DNA of 64,000 nt from an uncultured Planctomycetales bacterium (GTDB taxonomy: Bacteria; Omnitrophota; Gorgyraeia; Gygaellales; Profunditerraquicolaceae). A program made the translations under genes and the position numbers. The notes beneath the pieces are model-generated. The model was not told the DNA's origin, searched no databases, and saw only the letters and a list, made by a program, of their open reading frames with translations. The stretch covers positions 464-64,463 of the forward strand of contig CAYPRG010000001.1 in the NCBI GenBank assembly GCA_964413025.1, read 5' to 3'. Below, in pieces: positions 1-20,562 of the stretch (positions are counted from its first letter, which is position 1; each line of letters opens with the position of its first letter).

Positions 1-1180
1 CTCTATTTCCTTGACCGGGCCCTTCCATAATTCCCTTACTATATAATAGCCCTTCCTGGGGACGCGTTTATTAAGCCCGTTTTCTAATTCTTCAGATAGC
101 GTCACAATACCAAACCACTCCTCGTTCATATTTTTATTACCCTTTGCCAGGATATCATGGTAGTAGTTGCCATTGGACCAGTTTGATTCGGTATTATGCC
201 GCTTCCATCCTTCTGCGTTATTATCCACCTGCATAGATTCGTTATATTTCCACCACTCATCCGTCCATTCAAACATTATGCCGCCTAAACAATTACCCAC
301 GCCCTCTTTATTGCCGGCTAAATTCTCATAAATCTGGCGCCACTGCCATTCCAAAAAGTATGCCTGCATGTTCTGGTCTTCTTTATTTAAGTAGGCATCA
401 TAAGCGTCCGCGCCGAATTCCGCCACTATAAGAGGCTTATTAAAATCTGTCTTTAGGGATTTGAATAAATTTCCGAAAGTCTTACCACGATAAATCATAC
501 AGGCAATTAAATCAATATCTTTCGCAACAGAAGAGGCGATGTTTAAATATGTGAGTTCACAATTACCCAAAGCCACCGGATGGCTGGGGTCTATTTTATG
601 GATCTCTTTAGCCAGTTCATTGACAAAAGAATAATAGGCTTTAGCGCGCATCTCTATTTGTTTTGAGGGATTTGGCTCTTTGTCTATTTCGCTGTTGCAC
701 CAGGGCCTGAGCTGGCCGGAGAATGTACGGTTATTTTCATTACCCAGGATCCACATCAGGATTCCCGGCTCATCTTTGTAAAGATTAACCATTGCTAAAA
801 CTTCTTTTTTTACTTTTCCCTGGAAAGCTTTATCGTCATAACTGGGACAGGGCCCTTCCCACAATCCCACCCAGTTACCCAAGACAGTGCGGATACCAAA
901 AAGCTCGTAGAAGTCTTTGATTACCTGCTTTACTGCCTGGGGATTTTCCCCGGGGTTATAAATCCTTATTGTGTTTATCCCCATTTCTTTCATTAATTTA
1001 CCATCGACAAGCCAGGGTTTAGCCGGGTCAAGCCACCAGTCATATTCATGGTTCTGGCCTATAGGCACGGGGCTGTAACAAACACCCTTTACGATATATG
1101 GTCTACGCTCAACCATCAACTCGTAACGGCTGTCTTTGAACTTTTTGATATAGACATTTGACTTGGGTATGGAAGCCATA
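1..1180 (-). other. Clan GH-A (TIM-barrel) glycoside hydrolase-like domain, at the C-terminal end of the in-window part of ORF A.
   Basis: Translated ...DEPGILMWILGNENN... (acid/base-type motif, about +730-750) and ...KPLIVAEFGADAYDAYL... (nucleophile-type xEFG, about +400-440). Also ...MFEWTDEWWKYNE... Confidence 0.55.
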
Positions 1181-4100
1181 CCCATCATAGCCATCAAAGA
1201 AAAGGAGAGGAACAAAACAAAACAGTATTTCCCGAACTTATGCAGCGGAGGAATATACTTTTTCACTTCTCCTTGCGGTTCCTTCTTATCCTGATTAGTG
1301 CCTTTAAAATCCCCCCTGCTCCTCTCAATCATAACCATACTGTTATGCAATTCAACTAAAGCATGGTAGCACTTTTGCTTAATCTCCTGATATAAAGAAG
1401 CTTCCATAGAATATTTTCCGGCAATATTAACCAGGTCTATCAATGTCTTTTCTATGCTTTCCAAACTCCCTTTATCCTCAAGGCATAAATTAGCAAATAC
1501 AGCCAGCTCCTTTACAGGCTTAATCATATTTTTGACAGCCCGGGAAACAAACTCTTCCCGGCTTAAGCCTGTCTTGCAATTTATTGAGGGTTCTGAAAAC
1601 AATTTCCTTAATTCATCCCCGGCGTTCATTAATCCCTTCAAAATCATAACCAACTCCTGCTTCAGCGAAGTAGTTATGTAATTAGCCAAATACAGGGAAT
1701 CATCCCCATAGACATCTTCAAGCGGCTCTTCGCTTCCGATGGCCTTAAATTTACGCTTCTGGCCCAACATGGAAGATTTAAATACCCTGGCCAGATTTTT
1801 AATTGCCGTCTCTTTATCAGGAGACTTTTCCCAGATGGTGATAATGCGGATCATCTGAGTGACCTCTCTGGGAGAGTATTTTAATTTTTTAAGGATACCC
1901 CTTACATCATCCCGTTTTTTCTCTTCGCGCCAAGTCAGGCTATCCGATACCGGGTGATAGGGTATGGCGCGGACTTGCTCCCTGGATAAACCCCGGATCA
2001 AGCCTGCTAATTCTTTCCTCGTCGGCCAAGGCGGACCGGTGAGTTTTCCGGAATCAACCAGGTATTTTACTATGGCTATTTCAAGGAGCGGGCGCATCCT
2101 TAACCTGTGGAACCCTTTGTATTCATCAGACCCTTCCTTAACACCCACCTCCGCCTCAAAGATTTCCTGCAAAGTAAGGAAATGAAAACCGGGGTCAATA
2201 TTGGGAGCGCGCGTGGCTTTATAAAATCCCTCTTTTTGCCCCAGGTAAAGCTGGTGTTCTTTTGTCGGGAATGAATTTTTAAGGTGTTCATATCCTGCCC
2301 TTTCACGGGCGATGTAATCTGAAATGGCCGAGAATAGCATGGAATCGGAGAGCGAAATAAATGCCGCCTGGTAGAAAAGCGCCCAATATAGATTAGGAGA
2401 ACCCCTGACCGCGTTAGACTTCTGTAAATATTCCAGGAAAATAGTGTTAAAGGCATCCTGGCGGGTCTTTATCCCCTCTACCCCTTCCATTTGAGACTTA
2501 ATATAAAGCAGGCGGTAATCCTGCATGAATTTAGCCAGGAGTTTACCGGCCACAATCCTATCACGAAAAATCTCAAAGACTTCTTTTGCCTGTTTAAGTT
2601 CTTCGCTGCCAACGATCCCCCTCTGGAATCTCCTGCCGATTTCTCCTAACGGGTTAAGCAAACAATTAAATTCCGGCTCATTAAAATAAATTTTATGCCG
2701 TATGTCAAAGAGGTCGTTGTAGAGGATTATCTTTGTCAATTTATAATGCCCGTAATTCAAATTTCTTAATATTTTTACGATCTTGCTCATCAGATAATCG
2801 TTCCTTGAGTCCACTTCCTGTCTCAACCTCTTTAGCCTCACTTCTTCTAAGCTTCGGATTATCTCTTTGCTTTGTCCGGCCCTTAAGGCGAAAAATGTCT
2901 GCGTCAGATGCAACAGCCCCTTGATTTGTTTAAATTTCCCCAATCCTAGAAGTTCTTTCGCATAGGAGAGCACAATACGGGCTAATTTCTTCTCCTCGCT
3001 TCTGATGCCTTTTAACTGGGAGAGTAGTCCGTCAATTTCTTCCCCTATCCCGGGAGCATCCTCGTCGGAAAGGCCTATCAATCCTTCAAGCGCTTTCGCG
3101 CAACCTGTAAGCCAAGCTATTTCTTCAAGCTCCGAATCTATCTGATGATCCTGGGCCCGGAATGCTACCCAAAGATTTTCATAAGGGATATATTTATAAG
3201 CCAAGACGGCGCTGCGGCTAACTTCCATTTTTGAATAAACTCTCTCCCGCACCAGATACTTGGAGTCTCTTACCATCAGCCAGCTGCCATCCCCTTCCTG
3301 ATTAATACGTTTTACCAAAAGCCTGTCTTTTTCTTTTTGAATGCGCACGATTGCCGATACCAAAAGAGTATTGGCTGCAGTTTCATTAGGAGAACGTTCC
3401 CCCTGCTTGTCAGTTCTCTCCAAGAAAGGCAAAGCCCGCCTGGCTTGAGTGGTTATGTCCTGCGGGATTTTGAGCATCCTGAAGTAAGGTAATTTTTTCC
3501 TCATTTGAGCTGTGACCGCGTCAAGCTCCTTAAGCACAGAAAGGCTTTCACCTTTTTTCTTTGAAGCCATTCTTCTGGCCTCCAGGATATATATTTTAAG
3601 ATTCCAAGACATAACTGATTCGTGCAGATTCTTCAAAGCGGCGATATATTCCAAACGGAAACGATTTGCCTGGGCCCGGATAGCTCTTTCTTCGGTAAAA
3701 TATAATTCATGAATGTCGATTGAAGATACAACCCATCTTCTTGCGGCAGGTTGATATCCCAAACTGATAAGAATAGCATCAATTTTTTCTCTCTCTTCTT
3801 TATTCCAACTCTTGTTATCAGCTACAACATAAGTAGCAACCATTTGTTTTTGTTCTGGGGTCAAAGCAAAAATTAATTTTTCTATGCCTTCTCTTTTGGG
3901 CGGGCCGGTAAGCTTGCCTGATTCAAATAAATACTTCACCAAAGCTATTCTGAAAGTAATCTTACCCAATCTCTCAAACGCGCAAGATATGTAAGGCTCG
4001 TCTTTATATTTTAAAGCCGCGTCAAACATGGCCTGGGCTTTGATAGGATGCATGTTTTGCGAAAGGATATCTCTACTTCCACACAACGCCTCTTCAAAGA

Positions 4101-7100
4101 CCTTGCCGGGTTCTGTTTTAAGGAAACGCTTTACCGCTTTGGTAAAGCTCTTTTGTTTCTTTATCTTCTCCCAATGATAGAGGACCTTCTCTCTGCTGTA
4201 GTGAGCTAAAAACATCACCCTCTGGAAAACTAGTTGCCGTTTTTCCTCTGAAGCGCGCTTCTTCCTTAAAAGCACCCGAATGTGCCACTTAAATGTTTCA
4301 CCCTGAGCGGGAAATACAAAACCAGCCTTACAGCCGCTCTTGAACAGGCTGGGGTTATCCCGCATTACTGCGGAAACGGTAATACTGTGCCATTTGAATC
4401 TTTTTGCCCAAGCCTCGACTACATCTTCCCGGGTGGAATAGTCAATGTGTCTATCGATTTTTGCTATTCCGAAATCAATAAAACCGAAACGCCGCACTGC
4501 GGCGCTGTAAAGGGCAACGTTTTCTTGCTGTAATTTCCAATAAGTATTTTCTTTACCGCTATTGTGCCTCTCTGCCAGCGCACGCTTGACCATGCTAGGG
4601 GCGTGATATTGGAAAGAAGCCCTGCTAAGAGGCCTTAGAGCGGCCAATTCCAATTCATCCTTATTATCAGTTAATTGATATGCCTGAGATAACCTCTCAA
4701 CTTCCTGCAATAAGAATTGTGTTCTTTTTTGATACGAGGCAAGAGACTTAAACGCTTCTTGGTTACTAATCAGGTAATTTTTTAATTCTCCGGATGCTTT
4801 TTTAGCATTTTCGTCTCTAATAACCGCGGTACGCACCAACTCCATCCAATTTACTAAATGTTTGACCGTGCCGCCATTCTGCGCGTTTAAACGGAAATTC
4901 TTATACACCTGCCAGGCCTTCTTCATCCTGGATTGCAATGAAGCCTGAGAATTTTCGTTTTCCCATTTCTTATATTCTTCAACCGCTTTATCTAATCGCG
5001 ATGGCGAAAGCGGCTTTTCCATCTTTATCCCGAAAACAGCATATAAGGCCCAGTAAAGAGCGGGGTTTTTCTTGTTTAAGATACTCGGCTTATCTACCCC
5101 TTCCTTGGCTAAAGCCATCCTGGCGGTTCCTGGAGTGGGATATTTCGGGAATACGGTACTCATCGGCCGCAAGACGGCAAATTCTAACTTATCCTTTTCT
5201 CCCTCCCCGTCCCCGTATTTCAAATCATATGCGCCGGAGATTCTTTCGGTTTCCTGCATCAGGAATCTTATTCTTCCAATATAAGACATAGACTCAAACT
5301 GTTTTTGATTCTCTAAAAGATAAAGCCTGGTTTCTCTTATCGCCCTCTTCGTATTCAGGTTCTTTATAAGAAGAATATTGACCATATCCATCCAAGTCGC
5401 CCATTGATTGGCCAAGCCGCCGTTTTGATGTCTAAGACGGTTGCTTCTATATAACTCCCATAATTTCTTTATCTTTATTATTAAAGCCGCGCCGGCATTC
5501 TTCTCTTCCCAGTTTTTATAGGCAACTAATATTTTCCTGAACGCCAAAGATTCACCACCGCATAAATCAATATCCAATAACCAGGCAGCCCTGTTCAAAA
5601 CCGCATCTTCGCGCATTCCGGCTTTAATAAATTCTTCTATTGTCACTCCCGGAGTAAGATACCTGGAGAACCTTCCATAAAGAGGGCGAAAAGTAGCAAT
5701 CTCTAATTTATCTTTTTCTCCTTCTTTATTGCTGTATTTTAATCCGTATTTCTGGGATAACTCTCCAGTCTTACTGATTAAAAATATTATCTTATTCTTG
5801 TAAGACAACCTCATGAAGTAGCCGCTGTTCAACCCCAGAAGCAGGATCATCCTTTGCGCGGCTTTCCTGGTCGCAGGTTCAGAGATGAGTGTCTTGTTGA
5901 TTAAGGCCGTCCAAATCACCCATTCATAAATAGGAGTATGGTAGCCATTCAGTTTATTAATTAAATAGAGCTCATAAACTTTTTTTGCTTTTTCCAATAA
6001 AGGCAATTCTCTATTATCCTTCTCCCAAGATTCATATTGAGCCACTGCCCTATTAAAAGCCTCCGAGGGTTCAAAATTTTTGTTCAGTAAGAATATTTTA
6101 TTTGCTGCCCTGCAGAGGCGGACCGTAAAATAAGCGCCGAAATATCCGGCGCTAATCTTATCGCTATCAGCCAATCGCTGCATCGCCCTCCATAAGGCTT
6201 TACCGAATCTACTGTCTAATCCCTTCTTCTGGGCTACGGCTTTAATGTGCCGGGCAACTGCCGGAGTGAACTCCTTATCGGACATAATCAAAGTCAACGC
6301 CCTGGCCAATCTTGCCAGAGGCAGGCGATTGGACTTTTCGGCTAAGATATCCACGGCTTCCCGCAAGGCATCTTCTACGTTAAACGCTTTGTTAATAAAG
6401 GCATTACCAACGGATTTGTTCTTTGAGCCATAAATCTCCAGCATCCTTCTTGCCCTCTTGATTGCTTTTGCCTCTATCTGCCTGATCCTTTCCCTGGTCA
6501 AACAGAGCAATTCTCCTGTTTCTTCAAGAGTCTTCGTCTGGTTAGCATCACCGCCTAATCCGTAACGCAAGGCTAATACAACCCGCTCATCGTTCTCTAA
6601 CTTTAAAAGCACGCCGCCTATATTTTCTTTTATTATAGCCTGACAGGCTTTCTTTTCGGGAGAGGCGAATGTGTTTTGTTCGATGAAACTTCCCCGGCTA
6701 TCTTCGCTTTCCTGGCTGACCGGAGCATCCAATGATATAGGGTCGCGGATTGCAAGGAGTTTCTTGATTATTTTTCCGGGTAGCTTCATTATCCTGGCCA
6801 GCTCTTCAAAGGTAGGCTCTCTCCCATGTTCCTGAACGAACTTCTGAGAAATCTTTTCTAATTTAAACTTCTTCTCCAACATAAACACCGGTACTCGTAT
6901 TGTATGGGCTTTTTCCGATAATGCCCGGGTAATTGCCTGGCGTATCCACCAAGCAGCATAGGTGGAAAATTTATTACCTCTCTTATGATCAAATTTTTCA
7001 ATAGCCGGAAACAAACCCAGTCTTCCATAGGCAAACAGGTCTTCGAATGCCATAAAACGGCCAAGGTATTTTTTAGCCTTATTGCCCACTAATCCCTGAT

Positions 7101-10100
7101 TACACACTACAAGGCAATCGGTAATGGTTTTTATTTCTTCGGGGGCCTTTGTAGAACGCAAAGCCATAAATAATTCAAATTCTTCTTCTCTGCTTAAAAT
7201 ATAGCGGCCATTCATATAAATAAGATTGGCCAGTATCCTCCTGGCTAAACTTAAGCCGTCTTCCCGGATATTCTCTAAAAGGTTTGTTGCTAAATATTCT
7301 GCTTCTTTTACATCTTCTCTACCGCCTATAAAATGCTTTTCTTCGTGCTCAAACAGCTTTATTAAAAGGTTTTCTTGGTTTAATTGGGTAAATCTGGTTA
7401 TTAGATTTAAGGGAATAAAAATCGTGGAATTATAGGTGCAGGCGGCTAAAAATCTTTCATTATTCTCATACCAAAGTAAACCCGGAGGGCCCTTTGATTT
7501 AACATCTGAATCGGGAAGGACTAGATAAATATTATCTTTACTCAACCACTTCAATATCTGCGGAGTAAGGACTAGCTGTGCTTTCTTATCCTGCGGTAAA
7601 TCCTTATAGCGGAAAAGGCGGTTCTCTTTCCGGGCTTTAGAGATGACTTTCTTTGTTCTCTTCTGAGCTTTCTCATCCACCGCGCCCTCTTCGGTGTAAA
7701 TGCCTGAGCCACAGGCAGAAACAGAATCAGCCAGATAGTCATCTAACCTTAACGTTCCGATTAAAGAATGCCACTTGCCCATCGCGTATTTTACGCAACC
7801 GCTCTTTAGGATATCTTTACCTGTGGGATTATCCTGATAAATCTCACCAGCAAAGAAAGGCTTTTTGATTATGGAAGAGGTATCTTTGAAACATTCGACA
7901 ATCAATTCAAAACAGTAGAAATCTATACGATGCTGCAGGAGGTTATGGGCAAAGGCAACCCTACCCAGACCTGTCAGCCTGAATAAACTGCGCCATAGCA
8001 CACCCCAGCCAAATCCAACTATAGCTGGCCAGTCATATTTGCGGCCTATCAGATTTTCTGCGCGGCTACAAGCTGTCTGCATAGCATCCTTATATTCATC
8101 TGCATCCTTAAATGCCTCCTGCTTAAGACGCACCACCGTTAAGCTGGAATTTTTATTTTCTAAATAACCGATTTGTTTTAAATATTCGGCTAATCTTTGT
8201 TTAATCACGCCTCTACCCAAAGCATGGACAATCCATCTCTTGCCTATATTTAGAACTCCATGGTTAACCGGGCTCTGGGTTGAGATCCTGATTAAATTGC
8301 TAAAGCTAAAGAATCCGTCGCTCTTAAATAAAGAAATATCTCCTTTGTTCAGTTTTAAAGCAATATAAGCAACTTTTATTTCCTTAAGCAGCCTCAAAAC
8401 ATTTTGCACATGGCCATAGTTTATCTTGCCAATCTTTTTCTCCTTTATCTCTCTCAACTTCAAAATAAGCTCAAGTAATCTATCTTCTAAAACATCGCCG
8501 GGCTTCCTGTCTGAAAACCCAATCACAATAGCCTTGATTTGCTGCCTTAATACTTTAGCTGAGGCACCTTGTAACCCTCGGGAGAGATGATTGAAAAGAA
8601 AATCCACATCGCCCTGCTCAATCCGTCTCTTAACCTGTTCTATATTCGCCATACCGCCTTCTTTAAAGGGCACGGAGAGCTTAATATTATTCTGCCCAAG
8701 ACGAAATAAACCATATCCCCAGGCGGGGAGTGTAACTACCATTTTTTCTTGGTCGATAACAAACTGAACATCCTCCGAACAAAGTTTCGACGTAAGTTCG
8801 CCGTTTATTTTCTCAGGGACGTTCGGCTCTCCTTTATAATAATTAAAAATACTGTTAAAATTAAGGCTAAGGCGCACCGGATAAAGCGAATGATTGACAA
8901 GAACTACGGCGTCTTCCTTATCCAAGTGCCGCACAAAAGGCACAACCCCGGTATCTTCTATGCCGACTTCTTTTCCACAAAAATCTATTTTTTCTAAGAA
9001 AGCGCTAAAGAATCTTCCTTTACGAAAAACAGGATGGGACACGAATTTAATCAACTCAACAAGCGGCTTAACCACCATAGAATTGTCTTTTAAAACATCC
9101 GGGTATGAAAACTGATATATGCCCGCGTCTGGATTCTTCATCTCCATACGCGCTCCCTCAGGGATTCTCATGCCGAGAATCTGACGTAGAGGAATAAGTT
9201 TATGCCCGGGGATGGCATAGGTAACCACCGCCGCGCCCATAAGGCGCTCCATAGAGCCGAAAGCGTCTATTGCCGGAGGCTCATCGTGATCCTCAATAAA
9301 ATGAGTGCAGTGCCTTAAAAATTCTTCCTTATGCTCACCCATAAATAAATATCCCCTCAAAGATGCAATATTCCCTTCTCTAAGTAAATCATAAAGGTGC
9401 TTATCATAAGGAAGCATTCCGCATTTCTGCAGCGTATCATGCGTTCCGTAATCGTAAGTTTCGGCAGGCATCAGCATTTTCGGATACTCTCTGCGGGCTT
9501 CCTCCCAGAATTCATTAGGCATCGTTTTCTGGAACTCTTCCCAGCTTACGCCCAAAGGAGCAATCCAGGTCTTCCAAACATGCTCCCTTAACCCCAAATG
9601 TGCCAAGTCCGCCCTGAATCCACCGTTACAAGTTAGATAGGCGATTTTTCTCATAACTTTTTTTATCATAAATCTACGGGCTCTCTCATCAAAATAATTT
9701 ACCTGAGCAAGATTTATCATAGACGGATCTTGCTCAAAGGGAGCGTTTTCCCGGGCGTGCATAAAGATAAGATCGGATCCGTTATGCCGCGAGAATGAAC
9801 GGCGATCACCTTCCATAAAAACTTTTAACTGCTCATCGCAAAGCCCTCGTGACCAATTAGGAAAATATTTTCGCACTAACTGAACAAACCGATTGTAATC
9901 TCCGCTGATCACCAGGCCGGGGGCTTTCTTAAGCAACGGCGAATCAGCGGCGATATGGTTAGTCACAAAATCAACAATCACCCTCATGCCCTTGGATTTC
10001 AAATTTTTGGCTACTGCCCGGAAATTACCATCATTGCCGGCAATCTTCGGATTTATGCGGTATCTATATACATCGTAACCGGAAGGTATTCTTTCCAGGG

Positions 10101-13100
10101 TCTCATTGTGTTGCTTGCTCCAATTTTGCATGAGTTTTTCTGAAAGCTTGCTCTCCTGCCATACCGCTTTCATCCATACAACACCGATACCCAACTCAGA
10201 AAGCCATTTCCAGAATCCCGCGGGCACCTTATTTATAATCCCGTAAGTGTCGCTTAAAGCGCGACCGTCAATTTCGGTGATTATCTGCGTAGATTCATCA
10301 GCCGGCCTGCGTAATTCACTGCTCAGGATAGTTATGGTAGATATTCTTTTCAGCTCGCGGATATAATTTTCATCAATCTCCACGATATCTTTTAATTCCT
10401 CGACGCCGGAAAGGAATACTTCTAATTCTTTTCTGTGGTCTCTATAATAAATATAAGCCTTGTGGCAAGCGCGCTTATGCGCTTCTTCTGGGGTGCAATG
10501 CAATTCTTCTAACTCTACTGATTCATGGAGTTTAAGATCGGGGAGTATTTTTTGCAGGCGGGGATCTTTAAGCAGCCGATGGATAACAAATACCAGAATA
10601 TCTTCAAATCTTTTGATTTCAAAAAGTTTTCCATTGCTGTCGCCAATAAGCTCAAACCGGGTTTTTACCCGCGGAGGGGCATGGACTAAAATACCTTCCA
10701 GCAACTTAGATATTGCCGGATCCGGCTCTTCTTTTTCCGAAAGCACCTCTGGTTTTTTGATTTCTTTTTTCGCTTTGCCATAGTAACTGCGGAGGCTAAG
10801 AGAGATGTTTCGCCCAGAATCAAAAACCGCCTCTTCTTTATCTATCCCGACATAAATAGGGTGGTATACTTTCGTGTGGAACGGTATCTGTTTCCTCATC
10901 TTATATTCTAACAATTCATCCCTTGTTGCCGAACTTGCGTCTTTGCGGAATATCTCCCACACACACTCGTGAGCATATTCTTCAAGCTCGCCGTTTTTGG
11001 TATTAAATATAAAACTCCTGGGAAGCGTACCCTGATATCGCGAATCATGAAGCAAAGTTTCTTTTATAAAGTCATCCTCTAAATTAAAATTATCGGTCAG
11101 CCATATATGTATAACTTCTTCTTTACCGGGCTTGGTTTTTATTGCCGCGAACATCTCATATATCAAGGTAAAAAGGTCAAAATTATTATTAATGTGGGCA
11201 GCCGCCGCCTCTTTGGTGGCAGGATTGTACATCAATATGCCTCTGCAGGTAGCAATACCGTAACTGGCTAATTTATAATTCTCATCATAAGCATTAGTCA
11301 CCGCCCATTCTCCCTCAATCGCTACCGCGGTATTATCAAAAGGCCTGATCTCTACGTCAAATTCCCTGCGGTCGACCCCGGGATATACCCAGAAAGTGCA
11401 AGCGTACCCCCAAGGAAGACAGTCTGTTTTTCTCCTCCAAAAAATATTTGTGCTATTGAGAAGGTCAGCTATCTTCTCTGTTAACCTGCTGGAAAAATCT
11501 TCTTCTTTTACAAGAAGCCATATCCTGTTCTTGTCCTTCCGGACGACCTCTAACCCGTTCGACGCCGCCAATGTTGGTAAAATAAACTGCCATTCTTTTT
11601 CTGAAACAGACATCTCAATATTTGCTTTTAATTCTGATCTGCCTTTCTTGATGGTTAATAAGCTGCCTATCATTAACCCGGCGGGAAATAAGGTAGGCGA
11701 GTGATTATAGAACAAGACAACCGCGGCCAAGAAAGCTAAGCATAAAAAGATAATCAAGGGGGAGAATGCCTGGCCGGAACGGTTGCCCAATGAAGCGCTC
11801 CTACGCACCAGAGCCTGTTCCATATTCTGCCTTATTTGCGGTTCGATCTTCGCATAGTCAAGGAAAGAGAAATCCGGTTGCCTGTCTTTCAAGTAAAGGC
11901 CGTGTATCTTCGAAGAATCTACCGCCGTCTGGATCATTGCTTCTGATATATAATCCGGGTCGTCTTTATATTCAAAAAGCTCAATTCCGACTTCAGCAAG
12001 GCGCCTTTTGATTTCTTCTTTTGGTACGGCCCTTAATCCTCCCTGATGGTTTATGCAGATATTCATTACGAATTGCGTATTCTTGACAAAATATTCAAAG
12101 AGAGCGCGCTTACCTAAGATTTCCTGCGGCCGGCGGGCTATCCATAAAGCCGCGGTCCTTAATGTTTTTAAACGCAGATAAACGCTACTGATACTACGCT
12201 CCATTATCTCTCCACAATTCATGCGGTATAATTCAACAGAGCCATAGAGCACCTTGCATCTATCGATATCCCTGTCGCATACAGTATTAAAACGGGATAT
12301 CCGCGGGAATATATACGCGGGTATAACATTTAAGGCCACTTCCTTTCCTTCTCTGCCCTGCACAAAAACCCTGCCATCTTTAAATGTTAAAGCCACCCCC
12401 TTCAATACTTTATATGCCGCATCTAAATCTTTTACTACCACCCAATTATCGAAGTCCGCGAATTCATTCTTCTCGCGGGCTGCCGAACCGTATAAGACCA
12501 CTGCTTTTAAATTATCCCCCAATCTTCGCTTAAGCCAATTTATATACCCATAACGCTCCTGTTCCCCCTGGGTAAGACAGGCATTCACAACGTATGTCTC
12601 TTCAGAAACGCAAGCCATAGGCAGAAGCTCAAGATACTTGATCATCCTCTTTTTTATCTCAATGAGCAGGCTCGTAGGATCATCCCTTGAGAAACGATAA
12701 GGCATAAAGGAGGCGTTTTCTCTACGTAAGAGCCCCAGAGCGATAAGCATCGCGGTTATTCTGTTATACACGTATATTTTATTGAGGAAGGTTTTATATA
12801 CGCCCCTGTTCTGGACAATATAGGAATCCATAGTGGCGATCCTCTGCGAGATCTCGGTCTGCAGCTGCAGTATTGCGCGCAATATTTTTTTTCTATAAAA
12901 TATGCCGTTGATGCCGGTCAGCGCGGATAATTTTTCTCTTCCAATATTCTGTTGAAGCTTATTTACTACTGAAGGTAAATATACCGCGAAGTTCCTGATT
13001 TCATCCACAGTCCAGGGTAACGGCAGGGTATCTTCCGGGGTTGTCTTAAGAAGGCCCTTTAGATATGAAGCGGTGGGAGAACCTTTTATAATAATCGTCC

Positions 13101-16100
13101 TAAATGCCCCTACATCATTATATAATGTCTGTCTCCGGAGAGGCTCGGTCCTATCAACAAGCACGCGCGGCGCAGAACTAGCGGAAGATTTGGTATCTTT
13201 AACGTAAAGGCTGAAAGCCCCGGGGAATTCTCTCCTATACAGGTTGGATATTTTCCGTACCGTTTTTAATCTGGTAAAGGAATCGGACATTCCGCATTTG
13301 ACTATAAAAATGACCGAATCCTTGGCTTCTCGTATTATCTTTTCCTCTAATTCTTCCATACCTATGCTATATGGGCCATAGTATAAAAATATGAAGTCAT
13401 AATCCGATATATCTACATTCCTTAAATCCTTATACAGCCACTCCACAGAACCGCTTCTTATTAAATTCTCATCAAGAGCCTGTCTTTCTGATATTTCGAC
13501 TAAGTTCTTAAACCTTTCATCAATTTCTACCCCGGTTGCCTGCGCGCCAAACAGTGCCGCTAAAATGGCTACGCGGCCATCACCGGAGCCGACATCGAGG
13601 AATTTTTTGCCTGGGCAGAGCCCTATCTTCTTAAAAAAACCTGCTACTGTCGCCACGTCCGACGGAAAGAATGTGCCGCCTCTTTCTCGTTGCCCTGGAC
13701 AGGTCCCATCAAAAGGCCTGATGCCTGCCTTATTATCTTTTAGCGTATGATCGCAAATCTGGGAAAGCCTTTTAACTGCTTTATTGTGTTTACTCCTTTC
13801 CCATAACTTGTCCGCATTTACCAACAGGGCAACCAGAGTAGTGCCGATAGGTATTAATATAGCAAGAGGAATAAGCGGGCCTCCGATAAAAATGATTATA
13901 GATAGAGCTATTATTGCTTCGATTGCTACTACGACTCCGAAGAAAGTTAAATTTGTTTTATTTAAAATTAGCCATTTTAAAAGGAGGGCCCCCGGGAAAG
14001 ATAGTAAATGAATGCTTGCTTCAAAGATTTCCTCGAGTTGTTGCCTAGTTAAAGGAAGGGATGAAAATATTGCTGCGCTAAGGAGTAAAACCCCTATGGA
14101 CATGGCAATAAGCAGCGGCGAGAGTGTAAAGCCGGAACGGTTAGCTAATGGATTGGGCCCGCGTTCTTTTTTAGGGTCGCTGTCTTTTTCATGAACAACC
14201 TTAATCGCCCTTTCCACCGGCGGTAATGCATCTTTTTTGCGTGAACCGACTCCGGGCAGCTCCATCTGCCATACACCTTTATCAATCTGCTGTACCTTCA
14301 TTACCTTAGTCATATTCAAAGATGAACCGACTTCCCTAAAGACGCCTTCCAGCTCACGGGCAATATTATGGGAAATAAGCGGATCACCGATTTGCGGCAC
14401 ATTATTTCTTAGTACGCCTGCTAGCAGCTGGACTAATTTCCTGGATGTTCTCCAGTCCAATTTTTTGGTAAAATCATGCTCTAATTCCCTGATATACCTG
14501 GTAATATCAATATTTTGCAAGTGGGCCTGCTTGACTTGATGTTTCTTTATCGCGGGCTTAGCTATGACGCTACGGACAAAAGAGGTTTTAATTTGCTCGG
14601 AATGCGAGACTTCCCTGATTATTGCCCGCATAACCTCTTCATCCGCCAGGACAATCAACCGGGTGCCGTATTCTTCGCTATCCATGGAGGTAACCATCCA
14701 GAAGACCGCTTTGAGGTGTTTCTGTGCCCTTTCCTTCTTCATAAAATCCACTATCGCGTCAAGATGCTCCTGCGTGTATTCAGACCAATTAACAAACTTT
14801 GTCTGGCCTATACAAAATCTGACTTTGCCCAGTGGAAATAATTTAGAATCCCATGTTAGGTCTTTAACGTTTGAATGCCTGGTGCAATAATTATGAATAG
14901 CCAGTTCATTTAAAAATGCCCCCATATCCTTAATATCTAAAATCTTCCTTAGCCGCTCTATTTCCTCTGCGTCTGCTTTAGTAGCAGTAGAAGACTCAAA
15001 AACATACCTTAACAGGTTGTGGGCATAACTAACCACATCTAAATCCCAACAGATGGCGCTTACAAGCATAAAAGCATCTGCCCGGGAAATATCAATGTTA
15101 CATTTACGGTAATCTTCCGCGACCATACTGCAAGTACATGACTCACAAGGCCTTAATAAGAAATCCTTCGGCAGGATAACCCCTTCAGGCACAGAATGAT
15201 GGTCTTTTCCATTAATGACTTCGAACTTCTTCAGCTCATCTCTTTCAACCTTAGTATGATCAAGCGGGATTAACTTTAATTTTTGCCGTATAACCGAAGA
15301 TCTCTCGGATATTTTTTTGATCAGAGGTTCTATTTCTGAATAAAAGATTAAATCGCTCTCTTTAATGCCGCATTTCTCTAAAATATATTTTGACCCGCTA
15401 TCAAGGCCATCCTGGGTAATGGGAATATACTTTATATTCTTAAATTCTGACGGGTATTTTTTAGCAATCTCCCAACAACGGTATGCTTCTCTATCCGCAG
15501 AGACTACTGCATCCGCCTCCGGGTAACGGTGGCCGATGCAGAGGACTATCTCGCCGGCTATCTTCCCCTTATAAACCGCCTTAAGATAAGCCTTTAACTT
15601 TTGCTTACATTCTTTACGATACATTTGAGAAGCAACCGGCTCTTTATAAGCAGGTATGACGCTGATATGATTGTGATTGGCTTTGACAGGATTGGCCTGT
15701 GGTAAATTGTAAACAACCCTGTCCAGATCCTTACTGAGCGTATCCCGGAATATACGGCTTGCCTCTATAAAATTATGCGTGAAATCCAATTCTTCATCCT
15801 TGACTTGGCTCAATAGAAGGATTTTTTTATTGCGCGCCTTATCGTTAAGTTCAGCCGGATTATTATACAATTGCAGGAATTCCCCAAAATCGTTAACCCC
15901 GAGCTGGCCCTTGGTAAGCTGGTAATATCTAAAAACCCAGAGAAACATCTCAAATGACTGCCAGGCAATCGCCGCAGCAAGCAAATTTGGACGATCTTTA
16001 ATAAGATTATAAACGGGTTCGCTGATATAAATCACTCCTCTTCTTAAAGAGTAACGCATATAGAAGAGCCCCTCAGCAGCGTTTCCTGCCAGAAATGGCG

Positions 16101-19100
16101 CTGGCTTTCCTTTTACCTCCAGGGCAACTATGCCAATATTCCTCTCATTCAGGAATTGTTTATATGCCCTCTGCAGTTCCAGTATCGGCAACCCGGTAAA
16201 ATATCCTGCGTAGATTAAGCCGGCAATGACCTGTTCTGATTCTCTCTTTATCCTGATGATAGATTCATCTATGTAATTTTTTTCCTTATAACGCCTGTCT
16301 TCATAGGCTCTCTCGCGAGGCGTAATCTTTATTTTCTTTTCTCCCCACAACAAATACATCGCCCTGCTTCTCTCAACTGCCTTTCTCAAAGTGGACTCAG
16401 GCATCCCTGGCCGCTTCATAAATAATTCATGTATTCCATGAGCTATATCCGCCGGCAGAATATGCGCTAACAACGGCTTTACCTTAACAATGCGCCTGAA
16501 TATTTTTCCGTGGCCATTAGTCCCGTTTATGGCCGCCAAAACATCTTCTTTCTTTATCTCTTTGTTTACTTCTTCAAACAGCTTCTCTATTTTCTCGCGG
16601 GGTATATCAAACTCTACCGTGCTCACTCTGTCGCCCAAATCTATGTTGTATATATGCTGGCCCCAACGCCGCATATGTGAATCTGCATCGTAAGACTGAT
16701 TAGCCAGCTCAATTGACCTCAGGAATATATTCACCACCGGGACAAAACGGCTGAGAAGCATCACCGGATTTACAACCAATGATTTAAATAACCAGTTCTC
16801 ATTAATAGCAACTAGCGCCTTCTTTATCACTTTGAATATGGTGCCATTCATTGAAGTAGGGTTTGTTTCCTCGCTTAGAAAAACGGCTACAACGGAATGA
16901 TTCTTATCCTGGGGAAAATTCTCCTGCTCCAGTAAGTAAATGGGGAAATAACTCTTAGGATGCGCTCCGCCGTCAATCAACCGCCATATCTTATATTCTC
17001 CCTTGTATTTACCTTCCCAAACCACAGGATTAAAAATAATTGGCAGGGACATAGTCGCCCTGATGGCAGTGCTTAAGAGCATATCCGGGCAGTTTTCTGC
17101 ATTCAACTCAAGCAGCTTTCCGGAAGTATGATCTACGGCCGTAACCGTAAGGCTGATAGGGTAACCTGCTTCTTGGAGTTCTCCGAGGGTAGGGATATGG
17201 CTAAATCTATCTTTTATTTTATTTTCTATCCATTCCAGGGCTTTTTCGCCTTTATATATACCTCCCTGGGAAAGCAAATTCCAGACGTTATCAAGGAACC
17301 CTTTCGGCGCGTCCATAAAGGTAGAAATGTTCATACTCAACATTTCTTCTTTTGCCGTTTCCACATCATAACCAAGCAAGACAAACAAACCAAAAATACC
17401 ACCTGCCGAGGTTCCGCCGATTTTATTGATGTAAAAACCCTTACCCGGGCCAAAAAGATTTCCCAACATGCTTAAAAAAGAAGGATAAGCTATACCCTTG
17501 ACTCCGCCTCCCTTAGCCACGCAGTAGGCAAGCGGCCTTTTTCCATCCCTGGATTTATTGATTCTCTGGATTAACTCCTTAATTCTTTCTTTTTTCCATT
17601 TTTTTAATTCGTTTTCAATATATTCGGTGAATTCTTTGGCGGTAGAGTGGAGCGGTTGAAGATTCGCGGAAGCAAGAATTTTTTGAAGCAGGATTAGTAA
17701 TTTTTCCGGAGGGGCATGGCTTTGTAAATACGGCAGATATTGGCTTTTGAGTATTTCCGCCGCGCTTCTATCTGTCTTTAAAAGCCCGCTTAATATCTTC
17801 AGGCACCTATCATAACTATTCCTATTCAACCACTCCAGGAATACCGCTTCTGAAATAACTCCATCCTCCCTGTCCGGATTAACTTTTTTTAAAACACTGT
17901 ACGCCTGCAAAACTTCATCCGGAATACTAACCCCTACAATAAAACCCTTAATTCTGTAAGCAATCAACTTCTCTATCTCTTCTAAACTTAATTTAATAAT
18001 TAGATTTAATAACTCCGGGCTTATTTCGCGTAGCTCTGGCATAGTCGCAGCATAACTGACGCGCTTTACTTCCCAATCTCTATACTCCGGCTCGCTAAAT
18101 ATCTTATCAAGGGTAGCCCTGGCTCTTTTTTGAAATATAGGGCAATGCATAAATATAATAGTCCTGACATTCTCTGGCCCAAAACCATTTTCCCTTAGTA
18201 TTTTTATGCTATTACGGATATTCTCTTCTGTGTTGGTAGATTTATCCTCCACTAAGATTGCGTTTTCAGGGACGCCGTTTTTAATCAGGCTGTCTTTACA
18301 GGATTCTGCCTCGGATATTGTTCCTTCCTTTGTTGCTATTCCCACTCCCCCGGAAACAACTATCATTTTTACCAGCCCCTCTTGATAGATTCCGGCGGCT
18401 TCTTCAGCAATACGCGGCGAATCAAGGCTGCCGGGGATTAATAATACATCCGCCTTTTCTCGCGGCAGTTTTTCTCTCTCAGTAAGAAAAGAAACTATAT
18501 ATCTAAGCGCCTTTTCTTCGCGGGCTTCTTTTTTAAAATCAGCTATGCCTGTGATTAACCCGTGCCAGATACAATATACGCTGAATATGAGCATAGGGAA
18601 GACGAAGAAGACTACTGTCAGGAATAAACAAATATCTTCTCCGCTGATAGAAGATAAACCGCCAAAAGGCATAGCCCAACAAAGAGTTGTTCTTAGTATA
18701 GCCGTTAGAAAAACAACTAAAAATACAATTGCCAGGCCGCGGGTTTTGGAAGCGTTTTCAATAAACCCAAAATTTTTTGCTTGCGCTTTTATTGCTTCTT
18801 CTTCGGTGGGATATTTTTCGTGAATCCTGATCTGTGAAATAATCCAACTTATCTGGTAAAAAGGATAATCCAGGTTATTAAGGATTTGCTCGAGTTCTTC
18901 TTTCTTCGCTTTACTAAAGGTTGTATTTGTAGCAATTTCAAATTTATTTACTAAATTTTTAGCTTTTGAAGTTAATGCCGGTATTAATCTCTCTATCTCT
19001 TTTCTTAATTCCTTTTTCTCTATGGCGGTAAATTCTCTGGATTCACGCAGCAGGCTAAGTTTTTTTAATCTGGGGGGGCCGGTAATTTTGCCTGATTTAA

Positions 19101-20559
19101 TCAGATATACCAGGGCTATCCTGAAGACCGCCTGCCATAATTTCAAAAATGCCTGGCCGATTACGGGTATATTTTTATATCTTAAATATGCCTTAAATAT
19201 TCCCAGGGCAGCCATGGGATGCGTGCCTTTGCGGATTTTTGCCAAGATACTTCTGAATTTACCGGCTTTCGGCTGGCTGTTGGCTTTATCCTTCCGGGCT
19301 TCCTTTTGCGGCTGGGGTGGCTGCTGATCCATGAAAAGGATATTTACTTCGGTATCCTTATCAAAGAAAACCAGTTGATTAGTATTAAAAACAAGGTCCA
19401 ACTCTTGATTTAACTCAAGCTTACTCTCGCTTCCAAGTAAAGCTACAAAAATATGTTTATCATTTTTAAAATGGACTATCTTTTTATCGCCCATATTCTC
19501 TATTATATCCACTTTTCCTTTTACTATATTAACGAGTGAAGTATATTTTGACTCCACAAACATTTTATCCTGGATTTCGTGCGGCCTTATGCCCAAGATA
19601 ATTTCTTTATCTTTATAGGGCGCCAGATAGCTGGCTATTTTATCATCGGTTTTTACCTGGAAGCTCTCGCCGTCAAAATAATAACCATCTTCCCTCTGGA
19701 TAATTTTTCCTTCAAAGAAATTCATTTCCGGAGAGCCGATAAACCCGGCGACAAATTTGTTAACCGGATTTTCAAAAACAACCATTGGCTCACCGATTTG
19801 CTGGATAGCCCCATCTTTCATTACCATTATCCGCGAAGCCATAGTCATAGCTTCTATTTGGTCATGGGTGACATAAATAAAAGTGGTCCCTTTGCCTAAA
19901 CGCTTATGCAGCTTGTTAAGTTCGGTGCGCATCTGGACACGCATCTTAGCGTCTAAGTTACTCAAGGGTTCGTCAAAGAGAAAAACCAGCGGCTGACGCA
20001 CAATGGTGCGCCCCACAGCCACACGCTGCCTCTCCCCTCCGGAGAGCTCGCGCGGCCTGCGGGCAAGCTTATCTACAATAGATAAAATTTGGGCTGCCTC
20101 TGTAACCTTAACTTTGATTATCTCTTTTTTGACTCTTCTTAACTTTAACCCGAAGGCCATATTCTCAAAAACAGTCATATGCGGATATAGAGCGTAATTT
20201 TGAAAAACCATAGCAATGTTACGGTCTTTTGACGGCACATCATTTACTCGTTTATCCCCTATATATACATCTCCTTCGCTTATCTCTTCAAGGCCGGCAA
20301 TCATCCTTAAGGTGGTAGACTTACCGCATCCTGACGGGCCGACTAAAATGAAGAATTCCCCTTCATCCACCCCAAAGTCTATAGATTTGACCGCATAATT
20401 CTTCGGCTCTTTCTTATCTCTTCCGGGATAAATTTTACTTAGCTTAGCAACTCTTACGCTTTTGCCTGAGCTTGAAGTGCTTGTTTTATTTGAATCCACC
20501 GGCAAAAAGTTTGTTTGGCTGGCCTTCTTTGCTTGATGAGCCCTTATCGCCTTGTAAAT
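1..20559 (-). CDS. Giant ORF A, 3' end beyond window position 1. The open frame of >=6,850 codons begins immediately after TAG 20560-20562, and its start codon is unclear.
   Basis: Same minus frame as ORF B. 1-2760 and 19321-20559 were checked contiguously and about 60 other lines sampled, with no in-frame stop. The first in-frame ATG (+20302-20304) lies inside the ABC domain, after its Walker A motif, so it cannot be the native start. Candidate non-ATG starts are GTG at +20497-20499 and TTG at +20503-20505, the latter with a weak AAGAAGG upstream. Confidence 0.7.
   Translation of the reverse strand, partial: [6853 protein letters not shown]
1183..1250 (-). other. Predicted transmembrane segment.
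   Basis: Hydrophobic stretch [22 protein letters not shown] translated from +1183-1250. Confidence 0.5.
4100..6450 (-). repeat. Tandem intragenic protein repeats of about 180 aa (540-nt period), with at least 3 clear copies.
   Basis: The copies are [29 protein letters not shown] (about +4570-4680), [34 protein letters not shown] (about +5110-5220) and [34 protein letters not shown] (about +5650-5760). A weaker copy lies near +6130-6180. Confidence 0.65.
6450..7450 (-). other. Sigma-70 (RpoD-like) domain covering regions 2-4, embedded in the giant ORF.
   Basis: +6901-7020 translates [40 protein letters not shown] (region 2.2-2.4). +6421-6540 translates [30 protein letters not shown] (region 4.2 HTH). 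Both are in the giant frame. Confidence 0.8.
8750..10300 (-). other. GH13 alpha-amylase-family catalytic domain.
   Basis: +9961-10020 translates [18 protein letters not shown] (GH13 region I DxVxNH). +9601-9660 translates [14 protein letters not shown] (region II GFRxDxA, nucleophile region). Upstream is [11 protein letters not shown]. Confidence 0.75.
11660..11760 (-). other. Predicted transmembrane segment.
   Basis: +11701-11760 translates [20 protein letters not shown]. Confidence 0.5.
12300..12650 (-). other. Minimal (Pol-beta-type) nucleotidyltransferase-fold motif.
   Basis: +12421-12540 translates [40 protein letters not shown], matching the hG[GS]x9-13DxD pattern. Confidence 0.5.
13300..13750 (-). 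other. Class I SAM-dependent methyltransferase-like domain.
   Basis: +13561-13620 translates [20 protein letters not shown], the motif I glycine-rich loop. Confidence 0.55.
13800..14200 (-). other. Transmembrane helix cluster.
   Basis: +13861-13920 translates [20 protein letters not shown]; the flanking segments are hydrophobic. Confidence 0.45.
16500..17650 (-). other. Patatin-like phospholipase domain.
   Basis: +17461-17520 translates [20 protein letters not shown] (the GGGxKG oxyanion motif). +17401-17460 translates [21 protein letters not shown] (the GxSxG nucleophile elbow). Confidence 0.7.
17950..18500 (-). other. DUF218 (YdcF/ElyC/SanA-like) domain.
   Basis: +18181-18240 translates [20 protein letters not shown], the conserved STNTxEN motif of DUF218. 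Confidence 0.55.
18550..18760 (-). other. Transmembrane segment(s) between the ABC and DUF218 domains.
   Basis: Hydrophobic translation across +18550-18760. Read by eye only, less carefully verified. Confidence 0.4.
19330..20450 (-). other. MalK/UgpC-type sugar ABC-transporter ATP-binding domain, at the N-terminus of ORF A.
   Basis: Contiguously translated [39 protein letters not shown] (Walker A, +20281-20400). Then [63 protein letters not shown] (signature, Walker B and H-loop, +19861-20060). Then [29 protein letters not shown] (MalK-type C-terminal regulatory domain). Confidence 0.85.
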
Positions 20560-20562
20560 CCT
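20560..20562 (-). other. The single in-frame TAG stop codon separating the two giant open frames.
   Basis: + strand 'cta' at 20560-20562, read in the coding frame as ...[71 protein letters not shown]... Confidence 0.85.

Follow-up and report, generated by a model that had tools for sequence, protein, structure and literature searches.

An RpoD-Like Sigma-70 Module Embedded in Frame in a Giant Omnitrophota-Type Protein

What does an RpoD-like sigma-70 module do when it lies deep inside a giant protein instead of forming a protein of its own? The question is raised by the window analyzed here, i.e., the whole 64,000-nucleotide (nt) stretch of contig CAYPRG010000001.1 (positions 464 to 64,463; assembly GCA_964413025.1), which comes from an uncultured bacterium assigned by GTDB to the Omnitrophota. 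The minus strand of the window is occupied by a single open reading frame (ORF), and a module comprising sigma-70 regions 2, 3, and 4 is almost certainly carried in frame inside it, with neither a start nor a stop of its own. As to function, we favor, at a probability of roughly 0.4, a tethered and latent module for sigma-type activity or for docking promoter and RNA polymerase, which would become a free sigma factor only by proteolysis.

An RpoD-like module inside a giant reading frame

The minus-strand frame spans the entire window and runs off both of its ends with 0 TAA, TAG, or TGA in 21,333 codons; the remaining five frames contain ~720–1,950 stops each. Each codon begins at a window position divisible by 3, so that residue i of the frame corresponds to window position 63999-3(i-1). 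The GC skew of the plus strand is negative and steady across the window, consistent with one long minus-strand gene. Because the frame extends past both window ends, it is missing from the ORF listing, which holds only short ORFs near the site and, window-wide, just four of at least 150 amino acids (aa), all on the plus strand. The frame and the parts of the module are as follows:

1..63999, minus strand: giant reading frame, internal part of the gene, with 0 stops and ~25 Pfam families along it
6442..7242, minus strand, residues 18,920–19,186: RpoD-like sigma module, region-1.2-like remnant plus regions 2, 3, and 4 (Pfam, NCBIfam, AlphaFold2, Foldseek)
7159..7242, minus strand: degenerate region-1.2-like helix RRILANLIYMNGRYILSREEEFELFMAL, aligning with the C-terminal half of region 1.2 of Staphylococcus aureus SigA
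6910..7113, minus strand, residues 18,963–19,030: Sigma70 region 2 (PF04542), 53–56 bits, gathering cut-off 24
6652..6864, minus strand, residues 19,046–19,116: Sigma70 region 3 (PF04539), including the 3.2 finger, 43–47 bits, cut-off 25.3
6454..6609, minus strand, residues 19,131–19,182: Sigma70 region 4 (PF04545), 37.5–43 bits, cut-off 24.1

The first-pass annotation had located sigma-70 regions 2–4 in a giant membrane and enzyme ORF on the basis of two peptides, and had described the module as lacking a start or stop of its own and lying between a GH13 domain and a tandem repeat. This anatomy holds throughout. Both peptides were recovered, FSTYAAWWIRQAITRA at residues 19,011–19,026 of the giant frame and TLEETGELLCLTRERIRQIEAKAIKRARR at residues ~19,157–19,185, and the three Pfam domains exceed their gathering cut-offs. 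Re-translation, the test that the annotation itself had set, revealed no frame break or stop between the module and its neighbors, and no Shine–Dalgarno sequence combined with a start was found for it. The coordinates agree with a position between GH13 on the N-terminal side and the repeat on the C-terminal side, and the fusion partner does combine transmembrane (TM) segments with many enzyme domains.

Profile searches of NCBIfam returned RpoD models at the top throughout; the C-terminal RpoD model (RpoD_Cterm, TIGR02393) matched with 237 bits (E = 2e-70) over positions 4–226 of 238, and the sigma-70 superfamily model TIGR02937, the sole curated model whose cut-off was passed, scored 97.6 bits against 42.9. 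Regions 2.3–2.4 read KFSTYAAWWIRQAITRA, the helix-turn-helix of region 4 is intact (LTRERIRQIEAKA), and region 2.2 reads EDLFAYGRLGL, compared with LDLIQEGNIGL in RpoD. The closest solved structure by sequence was Bacillus subtilis SigA (7ckq_F, E = 2e-58), the best matches being SigA and RpoD chains. An AlphaFold2 model of the module, built with 63 RpoD homologues as input, reached a predicted local distance difference test (pLDDT) score of 85–95, and a Foldseek search of this model against the PDB again placed sigma-A/sigma-70 (SigA/RpoD) chains from holoenzyme structures first (E = 7e-17, probability 1.00). By sequence and predicted fold, the module is a member of the sigma-70 superfamily. 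Compared with RpoD/SigA (groups 1–2), it has the same regions 2, 3, and 4 in the same order and fold, at 42–52% identity and 200–250 bits; it differs in having no gene of its own and in lying ~18,900 residues into a larger protein.

Separate expression of the sigma factor from an internal promoter and an internal translation start is very improbable. In-frame ATG codons do occur just ahead of region 2, at residues 18,929 and 18,945, but neither has a Shine–Dalgarno-like sequence; no such sequence with an in-frame start exists in the 290 codons preceding region 2, and no sigma-70-type promoter-like site was detected on the coding strand in window 5500–9000. The module is surrounded by at least 18,900 stop-free codons upstream and more than 2,150 downstream of region 4, so any internal product would still carry the downstream giant tail, and a free sigma factor could thus arise only via proteolysis.

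It is scarcely credible that the fusion is an artefact, that is, an ordinary rpoD seemingly joined to the giant frame through an assembly error, a frame error, or a misreading of the frame. RpoD predictions that are chimeric or duplicated do exist in public databases (P0001, P0122, P0123, P0125, P0127, and P0128). Against this stand the zero stops over 64 kb, which rule out an ordinary rpoD gene with a frame break, and the composition of the module: its GC content, GC content at third codon positions (GC3), and codon usage are those usual for the frame, with a codon-usage distance in the lowest 4% of equal-sized windows. The same native composition rules out a recent foreign insertion. The module is also missing regions 1.1 and 1.2, the N-terminal third of a real RpoD, as well as any start codon context, and a comparable embedding occurs on a second, independent Omnitrophota contig.

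Terminator-like hairpins are enriched in window 5500–9000 (13 versus 3.9 +/- 2.4 in shuffles), with 11 of the 13 on the coding strand. One of these, at 6153–6133 on the minus strand, ~290 nt past the end of the sigma module, has a 9-bp stem with 6 GC pairs followed by TATTTT. The excess may simply reflect codon structure.

Conserved promoter contacts and altered polymerase contacts

The divergence of the module was assessed against 84 RpoD representatives, one per 50%-identity cluster. Its mean identity to these RpoDs is 46%, compared with an RpoD-versus-RpoD average of 68% and with 55% for the most divergent single RpoD; the module is a long branch, more divergent than any of the 84 representatives. 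Of the 87 near-invariant columns (at least 95% conserved), 67 (77%) are kept and 20 differ. Identity relative to the RpoD-versus-RpoD level is 0.78 at these columns and 0.49–0.66 at less conserved ones, and a binomial test against uniform drift gave p = 9e-6. Such uneven conservation across the alignment argues against neutral decay of the module. Conserved columns were kept as follows:

Region 2.3: 11/13
Region 2.4: 13/19
Region 4.1: 7/9
Region 4.2: 18/24
Region 2.1: 7/12
Region 2.2: 7/14
Region 3.2: 8/15
1.2-like remnant: 4/10

Taken together, the DNA melting and recognition regions (2.3, 2.4, 4.1, and 4.2) keep 49 of 65 columns, versus 26 of 51 in the regions contacting the core enzyme or the active site (1.2, 2.1, 2.2, and 3.2; Fisher p = 0.0105). 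The −10 residues Y430, W433, W434, Q437, T440, and R441 (Escherichia coli numbering, used throughout) and the −35 helix TRERIRQIEAKA are all present.

The term textbook RpoD, which the first-pass annotation applied to the two peptides, overstates the likeness of the module. Contacts of region 2.2 with the beta-prime coiled-coil are made by D403, Q406, E407, and N409 (PMC8321222). The module keeps D403, and the other three of the four are replaced non-conservatively (Q406A, E407Y, and N409R); the residues A, Y, and R at 406, 407, and 409 occur in 0 of the 84 RpoD representatives. Other invariant positions are changed as well (R385G, S389N, G398F, I405F, R448H, and H455F). Besides the 2.2 contacts, R448H, and H455F, three finger positions are altered; H455 is the extended −10 contact. 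From these substitutions, binding to core RNA polymerase may be weak or lost. Substitutions at the 2.2 positions have been found merely to weaken beta-prime binding, and E407A and N409R are present in the sigma factor of Hodgkinia endosymbionts, their sole sigma (PMC8321222); the changed contacts therefore lower the expectation of strong core binding without excluding it.

The N-terminal side of the module is reduced too. Regions 1.1 (PF03979) and 1.2 (PF00140), which the first-pass annotation had proposed to look for, were not detected in the module by Pfam even at E <= 10, and only a degenerate remnant of region 1.2 could be traced in pairwise alignment, where its C-terminal half (‘ILSREEEFEL’) matches SigA. 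The curated RpoD, RpoS, and SigB cut-offs were all missed (TIGR02393, 236.9 versus 354; PRK05658, 251.7 versus 555; PRK09210, 234 versus 572). By its scores, its missing regions 1.1/1.2, its 2.2 contacts, and its lack of gene autonomy, the module is not an RpoD equivalog.

These departures bring in the main rival explanation, which we regard as somewhat less likely than the tethered, latent module: an exapted or decaying domain without any RNA polymerase function, serving as a DNA- or protein-binding or structural element, or persisting as an eroding relic in a frame kept open otherwise. It would account for the loss of three of the four beta-prime contacts and for regions 1.2, 2.1, 2.2, and 3.2 being the least retained, as well as for the absent region 1.1, the region 1.2 undetectable by Pfam, the failure at every RpoD, RpoS, and SigB cut-off, and a mean RpoD identity of 46%, under that of the most divergent RpoD. 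Degeneration inside giant proteins does occur, since three of the four sigma-like modules of another Omnitrophota protein, MBF0486236.1, lack the melting residues. A DNA-only role is conceivable, given that B. subtilis sigma-A can bind promoter DNA without core (PMC3035472). On the other side, conserved columns are kept far beyond uniform drift. The module retains its melting residues (Y430, W433, and W434) as well as much of the 3.2 finger, and we know of no role for either outside the holoenzyme. Sigma-E and sigma-K of Bacillus also deviate at the 2.2 positions in question. The mild effect of the 2.2 substitutions, together with the occurrence of N409R and E407A in the only sigma factor of Hodgkinia, likewise speaks against a complete loss of polymerase function (PMC8321222).

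The giant protein and its relatives

Pfam domains follow one another along the frame, from the N- to the C-terminal side, in the order GNAT, HEAT repeats, GT20 (238 bits), NUDIX, phosphofructokinase (166 bits), and a second GNAT; GGDEF (158 bits), MraZ, all four phosphoglucomutase domains, and many further HEAT repeats; DUF4912, GH57 with BE_C, an ABC ATPase with a MalK OB domain, DUF218, and patatin; and finally DHH/DHHA2, a methyltransferase, GH13, a C92-like peptidase, the sigma module, and a GH2-type TIM barrel. The modules checked have intact catalytic motifs (GGEEF, Walker A GPSGCGKS, LSGGERQR, Walker B, and the phosphofructokinase motif GGDDT), and a hydrophobicity scan yielded ~30 candidate TM segments. 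Searches of the 64-kb window for Rfam families and tRNAs detected none.

MraZ, a second transcription-related DNA-binding domain, is located right after GGDEF in the same frame (window 31390–31536, minus strand, residues 10,822–10,870, 39.8 bits); the sigma module is therefore not the sole transcription-related domain of the giant protein. GC content is 0.36–0.39 at window 54001–62000, compared with ~0.42–0.44 elsewhere, and this low-GC stretch codes for clusters of hydrophobic segments (residues ~640–860, 2235–2400, and 3377–3504).

Giant proteins of the Omnitrophota have been described as ‘Archaeovorins’ (West-Roberts et al. 2023, bioRxiv 10.1101/2023.11.21.568195) and as ‘multi-enzyme metabolic clusters’ (Nielsen & Lui 2026, bioRxiv 10.64898/2026.06.07.730766). 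The frame resembles them in its length of at least 63,999 nt, its many TM segments, its HEAT repeats, and its glycosyltransferase/glycoside hydrolase (GH), NUDIX, GNAT, methyltransferase, GGDEF, phosphoglucomutase, and phosphofructokinase-type modules. Their SecA_DEAD domain, N-terminal C39/S8 peptidase, and downstream PilZ were not seen in the window, which excludes both ORF ends. For the non-sigma parts, the only relatives with a phylum-level name are proteins from Omnitrophota metagenome-assembled genomes (MAGs), namely MFA6281938.1 (P0121; 52% identity to the C92-like module, 309 bits) and MBF0486236.1 (P0124), which makes an Omnitrophota origin of the frame likely. Judged by domain content, the window is an internal piece of an Omnitrophota-type giant gene of the multi-enzyme metabolic or Archaeovorin-like class. 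A sigma-70 domain in giant proteins is mentioned neither in the main texts of the 2023 and 2026 preprints nor in the 2026 supplementary text; the giant-gene context is already known, and a sigma domain inside such a protein is apparently undescribed.

Two large protein searches, one of them with HMMER against 1.84 billion proteins, returned thousands of stand-alone RpoDs at 42–52% identity and none closer, and in addition MBF0486236.1. Several proteins annotated as RpoD that outscored normal RpoDs (P0001, P0122, P0123, P0125, P0127, P0128, P0169, and P0261) hold duplicated sigma segments that inflate their bit scores, and are probably chimeras of assembly or gene calling. The first six of these were set aside as RpoD predictions with duplicated segments, not relatives.

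MBF0486236.1 comprises the last 3,581 residues of an ORF running off the start of Omnitrophota contig JADFYI010000024.1 (MAG GCA_015233145.1), at 1–10747, and is named in the automatic NCBI annotation ‘sigma-70 family RNA polymerase sigma factor, partial’. It holds four sigma-like modules and, C-terminal to them, a TM segment and a domain of the glycoside-hydrolase type (arabinofuranosidase-like); downstream lie three genes for PilZ proteins, one for a GH94 enzyme, and one for an MFS transporter. Giant genes are typically followed by PilZ genes (West-Roberts et al., bioRxiv 10.1101/2023.11.21.568195). The two loci are alike in the placement of the modules in the C-terminal part of a giant ORF, with a TM segment and a glycoside-hydrolase-type domain C-terminal to them, and in derived motifs. 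All four modules and the window module share features foreign to RpoD, i.e., GNKFST (GYKFST in RpoD), TGELL before the recognition helix of region 4.2, and ILSRE[EK]E[YF]xLFxAL. One module is RpoD-like in region 2, with DLIGAGN compared with DLIQEGN in RpoD, and this most RpoD-like of the four likewise lacks the Q406/E407 pair; the other three lack the melting residues. The differences are also considerable: the four modules match the window module with only 37–80 bits, and three are strongly degenerate, each with extra region-4-like segments, whereas the window holds a single and far more RpoD-like one.

MBF0486236.1 also carries, beside these modules, extra region-4-like helix-turn-helix segments and repeated ‘ADNRPGKPxxWNYGL...HES’ elements. 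Homology between the segment preceding the window sigma module and the element that precedes the MBF0486236.1 modules looked suggestive by eye and was dropped, being unsupported by alignment.

Scans with an alignment and motifs of the embedded modules retrieved, apart from the MBF0486236.1 contig, only ordinary sigma genes from other phyla, with no further giant ORF except one weak case. On the thin basis of two loci, the shared motifs suggest a family of sigma-derived modules resident in Omnitrophota giants, of which the window module would be the least degenerate member seen. The weak case, L065 (CAYLIX010000015.1, uncultured Planctomycetia, ~6034–11577), is an ORF of at least 1,847 aa that reaches the contig end and has a weak sigma-region-2-like match (E = 6e-4); it may represent another large protein of the Planctomycetes–Verrucomicrobia–Chlamydiae (PVC) group with a sigma-like piece.

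Tethering, release, and precedents

The surroundings of the sigma module were mapped for membrane segments and candidate proteases:

11710..11766, minus strand, residues 17,412–17,430: nearest predicted TM segment on the N-terminal side (Kyte–Doolittle scan)
9940..10269, minus strand, residues 17,911–18,020: GH13 alpha-amylase catalytic-domain match (PF00128, 32.3 bits), on the N-terminal side within the TM-free stretch of the sigma module
7750..8382, minus strand, residues ~18,540–18,750: Peptidase_C92 / YaeF–YiiX-like permuted papain-like module (Pfam 24 bits, cut-off 27; NCBIfam YaeF family)
7333..7347, minus strand, residues 18,885–18,889: HExxH motif HEEKH, 45 residues ahead of the ‘ILSREEE’ helix, a candidate for a minimal metalloprotease-like site
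4480..6084, minus strand, residues 19,306–19,840: three tandem all-helical repeats of ~178 aa each, on the C-terminal side, an orphan fold repeated at the protein level
1168..1224, minus strand, residues 20,926–20,944: nearest predicted TM segment on the C-terminal side (hydrophobicity scan)
367–1005, minus strand, residues 20,999–21,211: GH2-type TIM-barrel match (PF02836, 23.2 bits), after the C-terminal TM segment

The module thus sits in a stretch of 3,495 residues without strong hydrophobic segments, and a linker of ~120 residues joins it to the helical repeats. The repeat unit folds confidently in a structure model and matches only generic helix bundles; at the DNA level, TRF found no repeat in this block. 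A word-indexed protein search with the repeat block and the N-terminal flank returned no homologues, although this search was weak and also missed P0121, at 52% identity and 309 bits.

As a reading of these features, the release or tethering of the module in a regulated manner, as first proposed, is a reasonable hypothesis. On the tethered, latent reading, the giant gene would long have housed a paralogue of the housekeeping sigma factor as a cytoplasmic-type module, translated only as part of the membrane-anchored giant polypeptide. While attached, it would recognize −10/−35-like promoter DNA, as its conserved helices suggest, and would perhaps dock RNA polymerase weakly at the membrane-bound complex; it would have to be excised by proteolysis before acting as a free initiation factor, and transcription would in this way be coupled to the state or processing of the giant protein. 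The sigma-bearing stretch would presumably lie in the cytoplasm, together with the nucleotide-dependent enzyme modules encoded in the same frame. Its location in the cytoplasm, DNA or polymerase binding, and any cleavage are steps that we infer.

Two modules near the sigma factor are leads, and leads only, for its processing in cis. The C92-like module ends ~170 residues before the sigma module and lies ~300–400 residues ahead of region 2; of the parts near the sigma module, it alone has clear relatives, being 50–55% identical to P0121, a fragment of an Omnitrophota giant, and to the stand-alone proteins P0160 and P0271, with the putative catalytic His and Cys invariant. Its stand-alone relatives are 267–464 aa long and have a hydrophobic C-terminal tail. 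No sigma follows the C92-like module of P0121, and the two modules are therefore not a conserved pair. The second lead is the HExxH motif, which occurs four times in the frame versus 0.45 expected from composition, with the shared context [FLG]-x-HE-x-x-H-[LF]:

Window ~52495–52509, minus strand, residue 3831: HExxH site (motif scan)
Window 35317–35331, minus strand, residue 9557: HExxH site
Window 33148–33162, minus strand, residue 10280: HExxH site
Window 7333–7347, minus strand, residue 18885: HExxH site preceding the sigma module

These sites may mark minimal metalloprotease-like modules scattered along the giant protein; in the AlphaFold model of the sigma module flanks, the HExxH region included, the pLDDT is <50. 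It has been proposed that Omnitrophota giants are cleaved into smaller products by their peptidase domains (bioRxiv 10.1101/2023.11.21.568195).

Besides the altered polymerase contacts, several points weigh against a tethered, latent sigma factor. An anti-sigma-like region, which the first-pass annotation had envisaged, or another known regulatory domain was sought in both flanks, including the 1,747 aa after region 4, and no Pfam or NCBIfam match appeared even at relaxed E-values; a structure search gave no specific match for the repeat adjoining the module. Any cleavage site would be hypothetical, and the proteases near the module are candidates only. Between the ABC ATPase and the sigma module lie six or seven hydrophobic segments, a count from which the membrane side cannot be derived, and topology predictions for such giant proteins are unreliable (West-Roberts et al., bioRxiv 10.1101/2023.11.21.568195). 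An orthologue of this exact module was found neither in the protein searches nor in pattern scans of GTDB-representative and Joint Genome Institute (JGI) metagenome contigs.

The same topology raises the idea of a docking scaffold, in which the attached module recruits polymerase or transcribing DNA to the membrane complex without ever being released, coupling the transcription of the giant gene or its neighbors to translation and membrane insertion. A permanent docking role of this kind is a variant of the preferred, tethered and latent reading, and on its own we hold it to be improbable. The missing stop, the TM-free stretch of 3,495 aa between predicted TM segments, and the intact −10 and −35 recognition helices are compatible with it, as is the proposal that SecA-like domains in giants export the protein itself (West-Roberts et al., bioRxiv 10.1101/2023.11.21.568195). 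The idea is nevertheless purely conjectural; the beta-prime interface is weakened, and the sigma module would need to fit the holoenzyme with ~19,000 aa attached N-terminally and >2,000 aa C-terminally.

For the tethered, latent module, the closest known way of working is that of the sigma/anti-sigma hybrids. In IutY (ECF243) and SCO4117 (ECF52), which belong to the extracytoplasmic function (ECF) groups, a sigma factor is joined to membrane-spanning and extracytoplasmic (carbohydrate-related) parts and is freed only by regulated proteolysis (PMC8999054). These hybrids are group-4 proteins of a few hundred residues with sigma-2 and sigma-4 only, whereas the window module is RpoD-like and has region 3. 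Their sigma part is N-terminal, with the anti-sigma or zinc-finger part immediately after it, while the window module is internal and no anti-sigma was detected. Their TM helix directly follows region 4, whereas the next TM segment in the window is ~1,740 residues away.

Pro-sigma-E of B. subtilis is an inactive membrane-associated precursor freed by a dedicated protease, and pro-sequences of this type are ~20–30 residues long, N-terminal only, and borne by normal-sized proteins. Pro-sigma-K of the same species is likewise an inactive membrane-associated precursor that a dedicated protease frees (PMC6242693). In contrast to the short N-terminal pro-sequence of a normal-sized protein in pro-sigma-E and pro-sigma-K, the window module is internal to a giant. 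MzaA of the MZA anti-phage system (NF041931) resembles it in having an RpoD-like C-terminal half fused to other sequence (212.2 bits over model positions 470–702 of 726); the cut-off of 800 was missed, the part specific to MzaA, at the N-terminus, found no match, and the genomic context is another.

A bolder proposal, which we consider decidedly improbable, is that a still-competent module from a giant-resident sigma family is excised, e.g., upon prey contact or processing, to reprogram transcription; the giant surface machine would then carry a transcriptional switch of its own. Bolder still, the module or a fragment with it would be delivered to bacterial prey to act on the RNA polymerase or promoters of the prey.

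To our knowledge, sigma factors otherwise occur as free subunits or, at the furthest, as short pro-proteins or ECF hybrids. Placing an RpoD-type module within a polypeptide of more than 21,000 residues would represent a new packaging, and presumably a new control, of a transcription initiation factor. The module also provides a handle on whether Omnitrophota giants are cut into working pieces: sigma activity is easily assayed and is hard to reconcile with staying embedded in a polypeptide this large. An embedded sigma factor further argues that long stretches of the giant proteins are cytoplasmic rather than extracellular, and its combination of kept DNA-contact helices and altered core contacts would offer a natural experiment on separable sigma functions.

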